DNA of 64,000 nucleotides from NCBI GenBank assembly GCA_000965745.1, contig CP009479.1:704001-768000 (forward strand), read 5' to 3'. Made by a program: the position numbers and the translations under genes. Each line of letters opens with the position of its first letter. Within the stretch, counting starts at the first letter, position 1. Origin of the DNA: an uncultured archaeon. Its GTDB lineage: Archaea > Thermoplasmatota > Thermoplasmata > Thermoplasmatales > Thermoplasmataceae. This document shows, piece by piece, positions 49,866 through 56,609 of the stretch. A model generated the notes under the pieces. That model did no database searches, had not been told where the DNA came from, and worked only from the letters and a program-made list of their open reading frames with translations.

Positions 49866-52565
49866 ATGCCTGATGACTTGAGAATTCTTAAACAGATTGA
49901 AGTATCCGGTAAGGAGTACAATTATTTTTCACTGCCAGACCTTGAAAAGAAAGGTTACAATATATCAAAACTCCCCCGTTCAATTAGAATAGTTCTGGAG
50001 TCCCTGATCAGAAACCTTGACGGAAAAGCCGTCAGGGAAAAGGATGTTCTCAATCTCCTGAACTGGAACTCAAAAGACCCCGGCAAAGAGGAAATTCCAT
50101 TCAAAGTTTCCAGAGTTGTGATGCAGGACTTCACGGGAGTTCCTGCAGTAGTTGATCTTGCCGCATTGAGAGACACTGCTAAAAGGCTGGGCAAAGATCC
50201 GTCAATAATACAGCCGCAGGTTCCAGTGGATCTCGTAATAGACCACTCTGTTCAGGTTGACTTTTACGGAACACCCACGTCCATAGAAATGAACACCGAC
50301 AGGGAATTCGAGAGAAACGGGGAAAGGTACCTCTTCCTTAAATGGGCGCAGAATTCGTTCAAGAACCTCAGAATTGTTCCACCATCGGTTGGCATTGTGC
50401 ACCAGGTCAACCTTGAATATCTCGGTAAAGTTGTTATGGAGGCAGAAAGAGACGGAAAAACATACGCGTTCCCAGATACGCTGGTAGGAACTGATTCGCA
50501 CACAACCATGATAAATGGCCTAGGCGTGGTCGGCTGGGGAGTCGGAGGAATTGAAGCGGAGGCTGCAATGCTCGATCAGCCTGTTACTATACTTACCCCA
50601 GAAGTCGTTGGGGTCAACCTGCATGGAAAGTTGAAACCAGGAGTTACAGCGACCGATCTGGTCCTCACCCTGACGGAACTTCTGAGGAGGAACAGAGTAG
50701 TCGGAAAGTTCGTAGAATTCTATGGTGAAGGTGTAACATCACTACCGCTCCCTGACAGGGCAACCCTGTCCAACATGTGCCCTGAATATGGTGCAACGCT
50801 GGCACTGTTCCCTGTGGACGATGAGACACTCAAGTATCTCAGGACCACTGGGCGAAGCGATGAACACGTAGAGCTCATTGAGAAATACCTGAAGGCTCAG
50901 GGTCTCTATGGCTCTCCTGACAGCCTTGATTACAGCCAGGTGATTGATCTTGACCTTAGCTCTGTCACACCCACAGTTGCCGGCCCCAAGCTTCCCAATC
51001 AGAAAGTGGAAATGGGCCATATCAGTAACAGCTTCCTCAACTACATGGAGGGAAACTCGGACATTCAGATGATGGATAACGGCCAGCGGAGCACAACTGT
51101 ATCCCTGAAGAGTGTCCCTGTATCCGTTAAGGGCGAAGATACAAAACTTTCTGATGGAGATGTTGTAATCGCAGCTATCACAAGCTGCACAAACACTAGC
51201 AATCCGCAGGTAATGGTAGCAGCTGGCCTGCTTGCAAAGAAGGCCGCTGAGAAGGGCCTTACGGTAAGCAAGAAGGTGAAGACAAGCCTCGCACCTGGAT
51301 CACGTGTTGTTACCGACTACCTTGGAAAATCCGGCCTTCAGGAGTACCTGGACAAGCTGGGATTCTATCTTGTAGGGTACGGCTGCACCACGTGCATAGG
51401 GAACAGCGGCCCTCTGGATGAGAACATAGAAAAAGCGATAGTCGACAATAACCTCAGCACTGCGGCGGTACTGTCCGGGAACAGGAATTTCGAAGCTAGG
51501 ATACACAAGAACGTGAGAGCCAATTACCTGATGTCCCCGCCGCTTGTTGTTGCTTTTGCTATCGCGGGGAAAGTCACTATCAACCTAGAGAAAGAGCCGA
51601 TAGGGAAAGACAGGGATGGCAAGGATGTCTTTCTGAAGGAAATATGGCCATCTGACGATGAAATATCTAATGTCATTAACGAGACAATAAACGTGAAGAT
51701 GTTCAGGGAGAAATACAAGAATCTGGACATCTACAATGAGAAATGGTCTAAGCTAAATGCTCCAACGGGAACCACATACGACTGGGAAGATTCAAGCACA
51801 TACATAAGAAACCCACCCTTCTTCGACGACTTCTCACCTGACAAGTCTGTAGAAATGACCGAAGTCTCTGAGGCCCGGCCGCTTCTGATACTAGGGGATT
51901 CAGTTACGACCGACCACATTTCCCCCGCTGGTGCCATATCCAAGAACAGCCCCGCGGGAAAGTATCTAATGGAGAACGGTGTGGAACCTGTAGACTTCAA
52001 TTCATTCGGATCAAGAAGGGGAAACCATGAAGTAATGATGCGCGGAACATTCGGGAATGTCAGGATCAGGAACAAGCTTGTGGACAAGGAAGGTGGATTC
52101 ACCCTTCACCTCCCGGATAAGAAAGAGACCACTGTGTATGACGCTGCTATGCAGTACGTGAAGGAGAAAACACCCCTGCTTGTATTTGCCGGTATAGAGT
52201 ACGGGACAGGAAGCTCAAGGGACTGGGCTGCAAAGGGAACCATGCTTCTTGGGGTGAAGGCCGTAGTTGCAAGAAGCTATGAAAGAATACACAGAAGCAA
52301 CCTGATAGGCATGGGTGTATTGCCTCTCCAGTTCAAGGAAGGGGAAGAATTCGGCAAACTGGATGCAGACTGGAACAAGCCCTTTACAGTTAAGGTACCG
52401 GAAAACCTGGAGCCGGGAACTCAGGCAGAACTAAGCTATACGGATAACTCCGGAAACCGGAAGAAAGTGGCTGTTGGCATAAGGCTTGACACGCCGATCG
52501 AGGTTGAATATTTCAAGAGTGGTGGAATACTTCAGTATGTGTTGAGAAAAATCCTGCAAAACTGA
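49866..52565 (+). CDS. acnA: Aconitate hydratase A
   Basis: QDFTGVP, GTDSHTT, ITSCTNTSNP, GCTTCIGNSG and GSSRDWAAKG motifs. Confidence 0.97.
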   Translation: MPDDLRILKQIEVSGKEYNYFSLPDLEKKGYNISKLPRSIRIVLESLIRNLDGKAVREKDVLNLLNWNSKDPGKEEIPFKVSRVVMQDFTGVPAVVDLAALRDTAKRLGKDPSIIQPQVPVDLVIDHSVQVDFYGTPTSIEMNTDREFERNGERYLFLKWAQNSFKNLRIVPPSVGIVHQVNLEYLGKVVMEAERDGKTYAFPDTLVGTDSHTTMINGLGVVGWGVGGIEAEAAMLDQPVTILTPEVVGVNLHGKLKPGVTATDLVLTLTELLRRNRVVGKFVEFYGEGVTSLPLPDRATLSNMCPEYGATLALFPVDDETLKYLRTTGRSDEHVELIEKYLKAQGLYGSPDSLDYSQVIDLDLSSVTPTVAGPKLPNQKVEMGHISNSFLNYMEGNSDIQMMDNGQRSTTVSLKSVPVSVKGEDTKLSDGDVVIAAITSCTNTSNPQVMVAAGLLAKKAAEKGLTVSKKVKTSLAPGSRVVTDYLGKSGLQEYLDKLGFYLVGYGCTTCIGNSGPLDENIEKAIVDNNLSTAAVLSGNRNFEARIHKNVRANYLMSPPLVVAFAIAGKVTINLEKEPIGKDRDGKDVFLKEIWPSDDEISNVINETINVKMFREKYKNLDIYNEKWSKLNAPTGTTYDWEDSSTYIRNPPFFDDFSPDKSVEMTEVSEARPLLILGDSVTTDHISPAGAISKNSPAGKYLMENGVEPVDFNSFGSRRGNHEVMMRGTFGNVRIRNKLVDKEGGFTLHLPDKKETTVYDAAMQYVKEKTPLLVFAGIEYGTGSSRDWAAKGTMLLGVKAVVARSYERIHRSNLIGMGVLPLQFKEGEEFGKLDADWNKPFTVKVPENLEPGTQAELSYTDNSGNRKKVAVGIRLDTPIEVEYFKSGGILQYVLRKILQN

Positions 52566-52639
52566 TTTTTCTTAACATGCGAAATGCGAAATACCACACT
52601 TAAAAATTTAAACAACCAGATTATTATCTGTAACTAGGT

Positions 52640-53947
52640 ATGTATATAAGTGCTCCACCAGGGACGGTGGAACTGGCCAGGCTTATTATTCCGAAAGATG
52701 AATATGAGAGATTGTCGAGCCTTGGCTTTAACTCCTATGGTGAATCTAAGTCAATGACAATCCTGCAGTTTCTGCGTGATCTTGACTGGATATATATTTC
52801 ATATGAAGAGTCCGAAGTGCTTTCGCTCAAGCCTACCCAGCTGGGCCTGGAGGTATTTGAAAGGGGAGTTGCCGCCGACAACAAGGAAGATCTGGACACA
52901 CTTGTAGAACTCATCAGGAAATACCTCTCTGTTTTCCTTAAAGACGGGCAGAATGTTGCTGAGGTTATGCAGGAACTGGCGGAATATTATCTGAAAATTG
53001 GAAATTATACCCGGGCCATAGATCTGGGTTCCGATCTCATTACGCTCGGCAACGAGCACAATGACTCCAAGGTGCTGGGAAAGGCGCATGATATTTACGG
53101 AGTCATAAATCTCTACAGGCAGGATCTCGATTTTGCTCAGAACCACTTCGAGAAATCGGTTTTCTATGGTGGGCTGTGCAACGATCTTGCTACTGTTGCC
53201 AAGGGGCATGTCGGCCTCGGGTCGGTGAACGGCTACAAACAGAAATTCGAAGAAGCGATAACAAATTTTGAAAAAGCTTTCCTTCTGTTCAAGGAGATAG
53301 GGGACGAATCCGGAATAAACCAGGTTAAACTCAACGAGGCATTCACCTACGCCAACATGGGGGACCTGAACGTGTTCTTCAAGATGAACCATGAGGCAAT
53401 AACTTACTTCGAGTCAGTAGGTGACAAGCAAAAACTTGAGTACTGCTATATCAATGAATCAACTGCTCTTCTGAGCATCGGCAAGATAGACGAGGCAATA
53501 GACAGCATTGTAGAAGCTCACGAACTCGCAAAGGAAGTTGGAAACAAGAGAATTCTTCATATGTCTGGATTGAACATCGCCAGGATCTACGTTCTGACAA
53601 ACAGGCCCGGGGACGCCTATGAATACATACTTCAGGCTCATGAGTACTTCAGGAAGAACTTTGACACTAATTCAGTTGGAGCTTGCAATGACCTCCTCGC
53701 TTCTTATTTCGTTGCAATGAAGGACATGGACACAGCGGCAGAACATCTTGAGAAGATGGAGAAGAACTTCCTTATCAAGAACAACAAGAGGGGGATCGTG
53801 GATGGGTTTGCCTATTTTATAAAGACAATGAAAACTTATTCATACGACGATGAAACAGTCAACAGGAAAATCAAGGAACTTGAAGAAAAGGTTCAGGATG
53901 AAAAGTATAAAGAAATATTCAAACAAAGTTTGGATGAAGAATTATAG
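52640..53947 (+). CDS. TPR-repeat protein with a possible N-terminal winged-helix region
   Basis: Series of about 40-aa TPR-like repeats (AxxxLG..Y....A...F); N-terminal LRDLDWI...KPTQLGLEVF resembles a wing. Confidence 0.82.
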   Translation: MYISAPPGTVELARLIIPKDEYERLSSLGFNSYGESKSMTILQFLRDLDWIYISYEESEVLSLKPTQLGLEVFERGVAADNKEDLDTLVELIRKYLSVFLKDGQNVAEVMQELAEYYLKIGNYTRAIDLGSDLITLGNEHNDSKVLGKAHDIYGVINLYRQDLDFAQNHFEKSVFYGGLCNDLATVAKGHVGLGSVNGYKQKFEEAITNFEKAFLLFKEIGDESGINQVKLNEAFTYANMGDLNVFFKMNHEAITYFESVGDKQKLEYCYINESTALLSIGKIDEAIDSIVEAHELAKEVGNKRILHMSGLNIARIYVLTNRPGDAYEYILQAHEYFRKNFDTNSVGACNDLLASYFVAMKDMDTAAEHLEKMEKNFLIKNNKRGIVDGFAYFIKTMKTYSYDDETVNRKIKELEEKVQDEKYKEIFKQSLDEEL

Positions 53948-53975
53948 ATTTGTGGTTTAAAAAGATTATTAAATT

Positions 53976-54068
53976 TTACTCTGCGCAGTAAGATCCGCCA
54001 GTCATTACGAACTTCAGCTTCTGCTTTGGTATTTCAATCTCTTCTATCATTTTCAGTTTTCCCTTCAT
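53976..54068 (-). CDS. Unannotated 30-aa peptide (alternative ATG at 54089)
   Basis: MKGKLKMIEEIEIPKQKLKFVMTGGSYCAE*; purine-rich coding-like composition; T-run after the stop. Confidence 0.55.
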   Translation of the reverse strand: MKGKLKMIEEIEIPKQKLKFVMTGGSYCAE

Positions 54069-54427
54069 AGCTATCAAATGAGTTACCATGGCAAAACTAA
54101 AGACCTTTGTGTGACAGGAAATGCAGTCCCGATACTGTTACATAGACAAAACACTTGCATTATGTATGTGCAAATTTTTATCGTAACTTTTCCAAGGTTA
54201 GATTTCAGTCAAGCCAGTTTTTAAGGCATTACACCTGAAGTTGATATTATATTCTCTTTCGAGTTTATATCATTTTTTTGCATACTGTTGTGTAGGTATG
54301 AACTGTCGAGAAAACCGTCGATATATGTTAAATTGGACGGAATGCGAAATATTTCATGCATAACATCCGTCAATGCACCGAATTCAAAAATCGTCATTTG
54401 AGAAACTAAAGTTATATATTACTGGCA

Positions 54428-55777
54428 ATGTTCCACTTTTGCATGGATGAAGGAGTATCATCTGCGCTGAAACAGCTTGAAAAAGATGGAGTTGGATTCT
54501 TACAGTTACAGTTTACCGATATCCTGGGAGCGGTAAAGACTCTCACAATACCAAAAAACCGTTTTGAGAGTGCCCTGACTGAGGGCGTGGTTTTCGACGG
54601 AAGTTCTGTTGCAGGCTATGCACAGATCGAAGAATCAGATATGAGGGCAATACCGGATCTTTCAACATACACGGTGTTCCCTCAGGGAAACGGATTTTCC
54701 AAAACTGCCAGATACATATGCACGATCCACAACCCTGACGGTGAAAGGTTCAACGGAGATCCGAGGTATGTTCTTGAGAGCGTCCTTTCAAAGCTACATG
54801 AGAAGAAAATGGACTTCTACGTCGGTCCGGAGTTCGAGTTTTTCATCTTCAAACGTGATGAAAAGGGAAATCCCACTACCATACCGAGTGACTATGGAGG
54901 CTACTTTGACAACACTCCCCTGGATGCGGCCAGTGAAATAAGGCAGGAAATACTGATGCAGCTCAACAACCTGGGGTACCAGCCGGAGGCAGCACATCAC
55001 GAGGTGGCTTACGGTCAGCATGAAATAGATCTCAGGTATGGGAAAGCGCTTGTAATGGCTGACAGAGTTGCCATGCTGAAGAATATAATCAAGAACGTGT
55101 CACAGAAGCATGGCATGTATGCAACTTTCATGCCAAAGCCGATAAACGGGGTCAACGGCTCCGGAATGCACGTCCATCAGAGCATTATGAACAGCGAGGA
55201 ATCAACCAACCTGTTCTACGATGAAAAATCGAAGTACGGCATCAGCGAACTCGGACTGCATTATCTCGGGGGGATATTGTCCAACATATCCCAGGGTTCA
55301 GCGATCCTTGCTTCCTGGGTTAATTCCTACAAGAGGCTTATACCGGGCTATGAGGCTCCGGTTTACATTTCGTGGGCCAACAAGAACAGGACAGCCCTTG
55401 TCAGAGTTCCCGCGGGTGTAAGGATGAGAAAGAGGATGGAACTCAGATGCCCGGATTCGGCAGGTAACCCATATCTGCAGTTTGCGGTAATGCTTGGGAT
55501 GGGTCTTGACGGAATAAACAGGAAACTTGAGCCGCCTGATCCGGTCGAAAAGGATATATTCCACATGACCAGCGAGGAAAGGAAGGAGCAAAGGATAGAT
55601 TCCATGCCCGAAAGCCTGGGAGAGGCTCTGCACCACTTCAGAAACAGCAAGCTCATGAAAGAAATACTTGGCGAGCACGTCTTCAACAATTTCATAACGG
55701 TGAAACAGAGGGAATGGGACGCATTCAGGTCACACGTGACCGAATGGGAGACAAACAGGTATCTTCCCATCCTCTAA
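54428..55777 (+). CDS. glnA: Glutamine synthetase type I (probable start 54443)
   Basis: FDGSS, HHEVA, TFMPKP, NGSGMH, NSYKRL and NPYL motifs. Confidence 0.96.
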   Translation: MFHFCMDEGVSSALKQLEKDGVGFLQLQFTDILGAVKTLTIPKNRFESALTEGVVFDGSSVAGYAQIEESDMRAIPDLSTYTVFPQGNGFSKTARYICTIHNPDGERFNGDPRYVLESVLSKLHEKKMDFYVGPEFEFFIFKRDEKGNPTTIPSDYGGYFDNTPLDAASEIRQEILMQLNNLGYQPEAAHHEVAYGQHEIDLRYGKALVMADRVAMLKNIIKNVSQKHGMYATFMPKPINGVNGSGMHVHQSIMNSEESTNLFYDEKSKYGISELGLHYLGGILSNISQGSAILASWVNSYKRLIPGYEAPVYISWANKNRTALVRVPAGVRMRKRMELRCPDSAGNPYLQFAVMLGMGLDGINRKLEPPDPVEKDIFHMTSEERKEQRIDSMPESLGEALHHFRNSKLMKEILGEHVFNNFITVKQREWDAFRSHVTEWETNRYLPIL

Positions 55778-55808: not shown

Positions 55809-56609
55809 CTATTCTGAAAACTCCCTTAGATGCTTTCTTTTTCTTTCTCTCCTCAGGGCATATGCATAGGCACTCAGGAAAGCAATGCCTCCCGGCAGCA
55901 GCACAAAACCGAAGATAGTCATTCCAAGTGCAGCATAACTCGCATCGCCGATGCTAACTGAAAGGTTTACGGGAAGCTCTCCGCTGTTGTTTATCTGGAT
56001 CTTCCATTCTCCCGACACAGGGACAATAATGGTGTCCGAACCGGATGATGCAGAGGAAAGGTGAATGGATGAATGCTGCGCCCCGTCAGGGGATAGAAGC
56101 ATAGCGGTGATGTTTCCAACCTGGTTGGGGGACATAGAATAGACAAGATTGCTCCCCGATGAAACCTTCGGGTCATAGAATCTCGTATAGTTTCCAGGGG
56201 CTATGGGTACGCCTTTGTGCGTAATTGAATCGTAAACCACGCTAATGTTGACATTGTATCCGCCGTCGTTTGCTATTTGCAGAGTCCAGTTTCCGCTCGA
56301 GGGTGCCAGTATTGTGTTAGTCCCGGTCGGAAGCTGGTTGAATGTTATGACCGAATAGCTTGTTCCGTTCTGTGAGATCAGGCTCGCAACAAGATCAAAA
56401 TTCTGATGGAATGAAACCTTGTATGTCAGATCGTCGCCTGCACTTACTCCTGCCTTCGAAAAACTCACTGTTTTGCCCGGGTCAGAATTCACGCTGTATT
56501 CCGAAGTTCCGGCTGATAACAAGTACACAGAGACCGCAAACAGTACGATTGAGGCCACTATCATTATCAGGCCAATCTGTCTCAACCTTCTCTTATTGGA
56601 TCTTATCAT
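55809..56609 (-). CDS. Membrane protein with duplicated extracellular beta domain
   Basis: TM at both ends; internal repeat (SG.W...I.N.G...VN.SV) twice. Confidence 0.7.
   Translation of the reverse strand: MIRSNKRRLRQIGLIMIVASIVLFAVSVYLLSAGTSEYSVNSDPGKTVSFSKAGVSAGDDLTYKVSFHQNFDLVASLISQNGTSYSVITFNQLPTGTNTILAPSSGNWTLQIANDGGYNVNISVVYDSITHKGVPIAPGNYTRFYDPKVSSGSNLVYSMSPNQVGNITAMLLSPDGAQHSSIHLSSASSGSDTIIVPVSGEWKIQINNSGELPVNLSVSIGDASYAALGMTIFGFVLLPGGIAFLSAYAYALRRERKRKHLREFSE

Follow-up and report, generated by a model that had tools for sequence, protein, structure and literature searches.

What becomes of a tetratricopeptide repeat (TPR) gene that faces a tiny, overlooked gene in an archaeal genome: do the two encode a receptor and its peptide, or are they neighbours by descent only? 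The question is raised by a locus in a 64,000-nucleotide stretch of contig CP009479.1 (assembly GCA_000965745.1, forward-strand positions 704,001 to 768,000), called the window here, in which a TPR gene and a small, unannotated open reading frame (ORF) lie between the genes for aconitase and glutamine synthetase (GS, encoded by glnA). An earlier note, made from the letters alone, had read the two as an RRNPP-like signalling pair, with a DNA-binding winged-helix domain on the receptor and a double-glycine leader on the peptide that would release the pentapeptide SYCAE. It named as checks the conservation of small ORFs beside orthologous TPR genes, co-variation, modelling of the complex, and a search for C39 peptidases or radical SAM maturases. 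The answer favoured here, with about even confidence, is a lineage-specific small-protein ligand and its TPR receptor, probably acting inside the cell and closest in logic to Rap-Phr. The genes concerned are the following.

52640 to 53947, plus strand: TPR gene, encoding a cytoplasmic protein of 435 amino acids with an N-terminal winged-helix-like domain and then about eight TPR pairs; stop codon TAG at 53945-53947.
53948 to 53975, no strand: spacer of 28 nucleotides between the convergent stop codons.
53976 to 54068, minus strand: unannotated small-protein gene of 30 amino acids; ATG at 54066-54068, stop codon TAA at 53976-53978.

The small gene and its linkage to the TPR gene

Length alone carries no weight for the small ORF, because about ten ORFs of at least 20 amino acids occur in the same intergenic stretch. 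Conservation speaks in its favour: it is found in all 24 complete loci that hold a TPR orthologue (21 of 21 on genome contigs and 3 of 3 from metagenomes), always convergent to the TPR gene and 4-28 nucleotides from the receptor stop. The pooled ratio of non-synonymous to synonymous change (pN/pS) is 0.13 (pN 0.068, pS 0.54; 16 pairwise comparisons), and, of five genera, four have a GAGG(T) Shine-Dalgarno box 6-9 nucleotides ahead of the ATG, while the fifth, that of the window, has a weaker GATAG. On these three grounds (retention, pN/pS, and ribosome-binding box), the ORF is judged from its sequence to be a genuine gene, and the conservation check named in the earlier note thus came out positive. 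Within the window's genus, conservation of the ORF also far exceeds that of the flanking sequence.

The start M-x-x-K-L-K is conserved in the alignment, which sets the true length at 30-31 amino acids. A 37-residue form, beginning at an upstream in-frame ATG at 54089, was ruled out, as the upstream Met is not conserved. Each genome carries one copy of the gene, and a genome-wide motif scan turned up no other. Gene callers record a 31-residue hypothetical protein in some relatives and do not call it in the window's genus; an NCBIfam scan of the peptide gave no match. The coordinates bear out what the earlier note had said of the layout, namely that the ORF is convergent to the TPR gene at 28 bp from its stop and divergent from glnA, the gene order being aconitase (49866-52565, plus strand), TPR gene, small minus-strand ORF and glnA (54428-55777, plus strand). 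In other genera, the spacer between the stops is shorter (4-15 nucleotides). An A5 run at 53959-53963, which reads T5 on the minus strand 13-17 nucleotides past the peptide stop, is a possible archaeal terminator signal. A small propeptide gene beside the receptor gene is what RRNPP systems have in common, and the 30-31-residue gene adjacent to the TPR gene shows this arrangement.

A hidden Markov model of the peptide, run over 169 genomes of the order, gave E-values of 1e-10 to 1e-20 only in genera g1 (the window's genus), g7, g8, g11, and g16, which are also the genera with a TPR orthologue. TPR orthologues at 90-44% identity occur only in Thermoplasmataceae, in these five genera, which share the most similar GS sequences. 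GS was found in 57 of the 61 genomes of the family; 15 loci from seven other genera keep glnA with neither the TPR gene nor the small ORF upstream, and aconitase abuts glnA in three TPR-less genera. Since glnA occurs without either gene and the peptide only with a TPR orthologue, the two genes behave, judging by gene content, as one insertion-or-deletion block between aconitase and glnA, apparently gained or lost together as a lineage-specific module of five genera. A metagenome scan for other contexts returned four loci only, all with the same synteny, and distant TPR homologues in other contexts (23-29% identity; L010, L011) have no recognisable small ORF alongside, so that they supply no second, independent setting.

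Several observations on relatives stand beside this picture. In genera g5, g14, and g15 (L048, L050, L052, L053, L059), which lack the TPR-peptide block, aconitase is convergent with glnA and lies immediately behind it, whereas in the window's clade it is upstream of glnA and co-directional; given this difference in orientation, gain or loss of the block would coincide with an inversion that kept aconitase and glnA adjacent. In Thermoplasmatales archaeon AK 1 (L008/L080), the TPR gene is broken, with a TAA after codon 362 and the remainder in another frame, next to an intact peptide gene; the sister genome (L079) has an intact 430-residue TPR gene, and the broken gene has either become a pseudogene recently or been misassembled. 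A 50% complete genome of genus g9 (G011, locus L009) holds a TPR orthologue of 32% identity followed by a degenerate peptide-like ORF ending in ...GGGFSND, with an in-frame stop shortly upstream; as glnA on this contig is spread across three frames, errors in the sequence are likely.

The same arrangement could be inherited gene order only, with the small protein acting elsewhere, for example on glutamine synthetase, and the TPR protein having an unrelated role. The peptide gene is divergent from glnA and has a control region in common with it, and with a single synteny, linkage to the TPR gene is statistically inseparable from linkage to the locus. Small GS regulators are, moreover, known: sP26 of Methanosarcina and IF7/IF17 of cyanobacteria (bioRxiv 10.1101/2020.05.06.080432; PMC6316151). 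Nevertheless, GS is present throughout the family and the peptide only with the TPR orthologue, and no glutamine riboswitch or other Rfam match lies upstream, which makes this account improbable. An Rfam scan of 52400-54600 at E <= 1 detected a chance snoRNA-like match only (18.8 bits, cut-off 60) and neither a glutamine riboswitch nor a Downstream-peptide motif, while the consensus fold of the 125 nucleotides upstream of the peptide gene (21 loci) contained no pairs. A riboswitch-controlled GS factor was ruled out, there being no Rfam match and no conserved leader structure.

The TPR groove and its predicted ligand

The receptor divides into two parts.

52640 to 52879, plus strand: N-terminal domain (residues 1-80), predicted as a strand, four helices, a beta-hairpin 'wing', and a helix.
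52892 to 53935, plus strand: TPR superhelix (residues ~85-432), about eight TPR pairs in the AlphaFold model.

The AlphaFold model of the whole protein has a predicted local distance difference test score (pLDDT) of 91.7. Its place in the TPR clan follows from profile matches above the curated Pfam cut-offs (TPR_12, 1.2e-17 and 64.3 bits, cut-off 30.1; TPR_2, 6e-11 and 42 bits, cut-off 27). By sequence, it does not fall into the RRNPP family, as Pfam gave generic TPR families only; NCBIfam yielded only sub-threshold repeat cross-hits. With the TPR part as query, the top Foldseek match is LGN/Pins (E 1.6e-7), and the next, among proteins of prokaryotes, is Rap-Phr (8e-5). The leading VIA-align neighbours are tied: APPBP2 with its C-degron (Z 27.5, root-mean-square deviation 6.0, 356 residues aligned), subunits of APC/C, and RapF with Phr (Z 26.6, root-mean-square deviation 4.4, 329 residues aligned), with phi3T Rap at Z 26.2; the Rap matches extend over residues 84-426 of the TPR protein. 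Further down are NprR (Z 23.5), MalT domain III (23.4), PlcR (20.8), and AimR (20.0). Since every one of these is a superhelix that binds peptides, the fold goes with that function in general and is no proof of kinship.

The peptide itself has two distinct halves. The N-terminal half is K-rich and amphipathic with alternating hydrophobic residues, L5 and K6 being invariant, and the conserved tail G-x-[YF]-[CS]-x-[DE] is directly followed by the stop codon. When the two proteins were modelled together with both alignments, the complex scored 0.79 against 0.02 for the best of three controls; of 80 solved complexes, 58 attain the mark reached by this score, as do 2 of 110 mismatched pairs. Between runs, at least 71% of contacts are shared, and the partner pLDDT is 50 or more. 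The complex-modelling check named earlier therefore predicts binding.

In the model, the last 12 residues of the peptide (19-30) occupy the concave TPR groove, and the least uncertain contacts join peptide residues 25-29 to N232, N272, Y199, S195, G198, F235, and position 268. On the concave face, K119, G192, S195, G198, Y199, N232, and N272 are invariant and N344 nearly so. The core contact residues do not change across 32 orthologues, and of the tightest contacts (N232, N272, Y199, S195, and 268), only 268 varies; K119 is at the end of the groove, touching the last residues of the peptide. RRNPP receptors hold the peptide backbone with conserved asparagines of the concave face (N152 and N192 in RopB; PMC4794775). 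N232 and N272, both invariant and in contact with the peptide, are likewise 40 residues apart, a spacing that matches the asparagine pair of those receptors (PMC4794775). The RRNPP trait of a TPR superhelix taking up a short peptide through concave asparagines is hence seen here as well, at the level of predicted binding, with the C-terminal tail as the predicted ligand of the groove in the modelled register. This extent of contact, along with the conservation of the 18 N-terminal residues themselves, does not agree with the release of SYCAE as a free pentapeptide.

Receptor and peptide also change together at two points of the modelled interface. TPR position 268, in contact with peptide residues 26-28, is W, Y, F, or S, and these four states follow the peptide: W occurs with Gly at peptide position -5, Y or F where -5 is Ser or Met, and S with Val or Thr at -5 plus Ser at -3. 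A single genus shows three of these states, and among 323 variable positions, 268 is the 4th best at accounting for peptide -5. Position 155, which touches peptide residue 29, ranks 15th of 323; it is V where peptide -2 is A and N where -2 is N (two lineages), and with V at -2, it is A in the window's genus g1 and T or S in most other genera. The co-variation that the earlier note proposed to look for is thus seen at these two positions, although a global comparison of the interface with the rest of the TPR domain did not reach significance (see below), and is suggestive support for the predicted register. The complex prediction with its clean controls, and the tracking of the peptide by 268 and 155, also count against a small protein that acts on GS instead.

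The variable Cys of the tail bears on a different proposal, in which the peptide is the precursor of a ribosomally synthesized and post-translationally modified peptide (RiPP), modified at the tail Cys/Ser, and the TPR protein is a recognition scaffold. Cys is replaced by Ser in two lineages, no other residue being found at this position, and the TPR protein has weak NCBIfam cross-hits to FxSxx_TPR (19.5 bits) and HaaT (13.6 bits); these are far under the cut-offs of 300 and 1125 bits. Neither YcaO (PF02624) nor SPASM (PF13186) was found in the genome, in a search limited to those maturase classes, and the neighbourhood has no maturase or exporter. In one lineage, the receptor residue that contacts the Cys/Ser changes along with it, a sign that an unmodified side chain may be read. 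A RiPP precursor is, on this evidence, very improbable.

Since predicted contacts reach the very C-terminus, with the invariant K119 at that end of the groove, the TPR protein might instead be an adaptor or chaperone that reads the tail as a tag (cf. PEX5-PTS1, Hop-EEVD, and the APPBP2 C-degron) and delivers the peptide for targeting, assembly, or degradation; APPBP2 with its C-degron is, in addition, the top VIA neighbour. Yet, an adaptor of 435 amino acids for a single client of 30 would be uneconomical, the nearby genes encode no protease, translocon, or assembly partner, and the Z-scores of Rap and of the eukaryotic TPR proteins lie within 1 of each other. This proposal is considered quite improbable.

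N-terminal domain, question of export, and candidate control elements

The N-terminal domain is the most conserved part of the TPR protein, with 24 invariant columns. Folded alone, it has a pLDDT of 73 and weak matches only (best Foldseek E 0.28, best VIA Z 4.2), nearly all of which are winged-helix proteins of the MarR, PadR, or F-93 type, with a fitting topology. A profile search of 1.84 billion representatives gave six matches at E <= 0.001 only; the four of them with E <= 1e-10 begin, as this family does, at residue 1, and none of the six puts the domain in a clearly different architecture. Neither an XRE-type helix-turn-helix (HTH) nor the three-helix bundle of Rap was recognised in it.

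The winged-helix topology proposed in the earlier note would thus fit, on weak matches, and its DNA-binding character is not supported. The domain is acidic (net charge -6 to -9, isoelectric point 4.4-4.6), and its wing tip reads EESE or DEGD, with E57 invariant, in place of the basic recognition helix and wing that would suit DNA. Because of this acidic character, DNA binding appears doubtful from the sequence and a protein partner is more likely, although K37, S38, Q43, and R46 of the third helix are invariant, leaving DNA binding possible.

As regards release from the cell, the peptide has no hydrophobic stretch (grand average of hydropathy ~0) and no Sec-type signal sequence. Gly-Gly precedes the tail in the window genome and in two genera, but the two positions read LG, TG, GA, AG, or TT in other genera of the alignment. 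The hydrophobic spacing typical of double-glycine leaders is not evident in the peptide. A C39 peptidase (PF03412) was not found in the genome, a single contig of 2.23 Mb from a Thermoplasmataceae archaeon that is 99.4% complete, whereas control genomes gave matches. The double-glycine leader was accordingly abandoned, and the search for C39, YcaO, and SPASM domains came back empty. No exporter, maturase, protease, translocon, or assembly partner is found among the locus neighbours, which comprise, besides aconitase and glnA, a membrane protein and a tRNA synthetase. Directly after glnA, the minus strand (55809-56609) encodes a 266-residue protein with membrane helices at both termini and two beta-sandwich-like halves, for which Pfam gives faint hints at most (PPC, P_proprotein) and NCBIfam gives no match.

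These results bear most directly on RRNPP-like cell-cell signalling, in which the peptide would be exported, perhaps trimmed, re-imported by an Opp permease, and sensed by the TPR protein, which would then alter expression or the activity of a partner. The layout of a receptor with an adjacent small gene, the predicted groove binding of the tail, and the presence of Rap, NprR, PlcR, and AimR among the best fold neighbours are in keeping with it; nine SBP_bac_5 (Opp-type) peptide-binding proteins are encoded in the genome, and a leaderless secreted RRNPP signal exists in SIP, the signal of RopB (PMC6565748). The peptide, however, lacks a Sec-type hydrophobic region and a conserved GG, the genome lacks C39, and no exporter is nearby; the 18 N-terminal residues, being conserved and charged, do not resemble a signal sequence that is discarded, and the receptor has neither an XRE-type HTH nor an RRNPP Pfam match, with an acidic N-terminal domain. 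Such signalling is thus unlikely. A little less likely still is that the pair stands as the first counterpart in archaea of RRNPP or Rap-Phr systems, with a peptide released (possibly leaderless like SIP), taken up by an Opp-type route, and sensed by the TPR protein. If a secreted signal were nonetheless true, the acidophilic Thermoplasmataceae would sense population density by a peptide.

Three elements may be involved in the control of the genes.

54155 to 54179, minus strand: conserved block ~90-110 nucleotides before the peptide ATG, present in g1, g11, part of g16, part of g8, and L121.
52577 to 52595, plus strand: tandem TGCGAAAT element upstream of the TATA-like box of the TPR gene.
54343 to 54360: near-identical element TGCGAAATATTTCATGCA, ~85-100 nucleotides upstream of glnA in the window's genus.

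The block before the peptide gene is a candidate promoter or operator of that gene. The element upstream of the TPR start is kept in most genera at ~60-75 nucleotides (L066, L068, L073, L075) and is, in g16, the palindrome TGCGAAA-(2-3 nt)-TTTCGCA, where the window has a tandem TGCGAAAT; this TGCGAAA...TTTCGCA element is a candidate regulator binding site or operator. A genome-wide regulon search with the GCGAAA...TTTC element gave 11 loose matches, mostly intragenic, and no regulon. A scan for bacterial promoters and terminators, unsuited to archaea, stayed at chance level. As for glnA, its start is probably the ATG at 54443 (MDEG...) rather than that at 54428, orthologues aligning only from residue 4-6, and a TATA-like AAAGTTATATAT box at ~54408-54420 would make its mRNA nearly leaderless.

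In the ligand-receptor reading favoured here, the tail G-x-[YF]-[CS]-x-[DE], with its free carboxylate, would lie extended in the TPR groove, its backbone held by an asparagine ladder (N232 and N272) and its acidic end near K119. The amount of peptide would be set by a promoter in the control region common to glnA, and the peptide level, through groove occupancy, would alter the action of the N-terminal domain, as Phr controls Rap; this domain would more probably bind a protein partner than DNA. The mode would most likely be intracellular, by an unprocessed small protein, because nothing points to export and the N-terminal half is conserved and charged. Of the RRNPP-like pair in the earlier note, the real gene, its TPR linkage, the predicted groove binding, and the RRNPP fold neighbours are preserved in this reading, and the leader, the pentapeptide, the DNA binding, and the export find no support.

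Several points weigh against this reading. Translation of the small ORF is put forward from its sequence. The complex score is the model's own confidence, part of which may be memory of the TPR-peptide class, many such complexes having already been solved. Gene order does not differ between the loci, and the five genera probably form a single clade, so that the co-occurrence may go back to one evolutionary event. The global test of the interface against the rest of the TPR domain gave p = 0.06, which is not significant, and in L121, the peptide has Ser for Cys, yet position 268 stays Tyr. Finally, a missing signal sequence does not exclude export, in view of the leaderless SIP and the nine Opp-type binding proteins.

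Exported or not, the pair would offer archaea a well-defined, genetically linked small-protein ligand and TPR receptor, with mutable residues already specified (N232, N272, Y268, and V155 in the receptor; Tyr, Cys, and the terminal acid in the peptide). It also adds a missed gene to the genome annotation, and one more case to the functional small proteins of archaea. With aconitase on one side, glutamine synthetase on the other, and no NrpR in the lineage (the regulatory domain, PF01995, was not found in the genome), the module is a candidate entry to carbon/nitrogen regulation, and would have a link to carbon or nitrogen metabolism. The closest named relative with the same locus is Oxyplasma meridianum M1 (L064), which, being listed as a completely sequenced strain, is presumably in culture.

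Comparison with known systems

A full-text literature search for RRNPP together with archaea found no archaeal system described. Among known systems, Rap-Phr is similar in combining a small N-terminal interaction domain with a TPR superhelix whose concave groove takes up a peptide from an adjacent gene, an uptake that is predicted here. It differs in that the window TPR protein has no sequence-level relationship to Rap (generic TPR Pfam families only), that the N-terminal domain of Rap is a three-helix bundle and that of the window winged-helix-like, and that the Phr gene is co-directional with its receptor gene whereas the window peptide gene is convergent; in addition, no signal peptide or export route was found for the latter, and the host is an archaeon.

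PlcR-PapR, NprR-NprX, Rgg-SHP, AimR-AimP, and RopB-SIP have in common with the window a receptor beside a small gene, the ligand being the C-terminal part of its product. The RRNPP transcription factors further share the concave asparagines spaced by ~40 residues (N232/N272 here, N152/N192 in RopB; PMC4794775). Their XRE-type HTH, however, binds DNA, whereas the window N-terminal domain is acidic, and their peptides are secreted and re-imported, a route considered unlikely for the peptide here. Double-glycine leader systems, in which cleavage follows an unvarying GG, GA, or GS in a fixed register, resemble the window in the Gly-Gly before the tail, seen in its genome and in two genera, but here the GG is not in a fixed register and the genome has no C39.

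Outside the prokaryotic peptide systems, PEX5-PTS1, Hop-EEVD, and APPBP2 offer the likeness of an extended C-terminal peptide with a free carboxylate in an Asn/Lys-lined TPR groove (predicted here); they are eukaryotic adaptors with many clients, in contrast to the one dedicated, genetically linked ligand of the window. Compared by description only, sP26 (Methanosarcina mazei), IF7, and IF17 are likewise tiny proteins tied to a nitrogen assimilation locus or regulon; the distribution of the window peptide, however, follows the TPR gene and not GS, and no glutamine riboswitch accompanies it. Overall, the principle is known and the setting is new: an archaeon, an orphan N-terminal domain, a convergent unannotated gene, and a receptor outside the RRNPP family by sequence.

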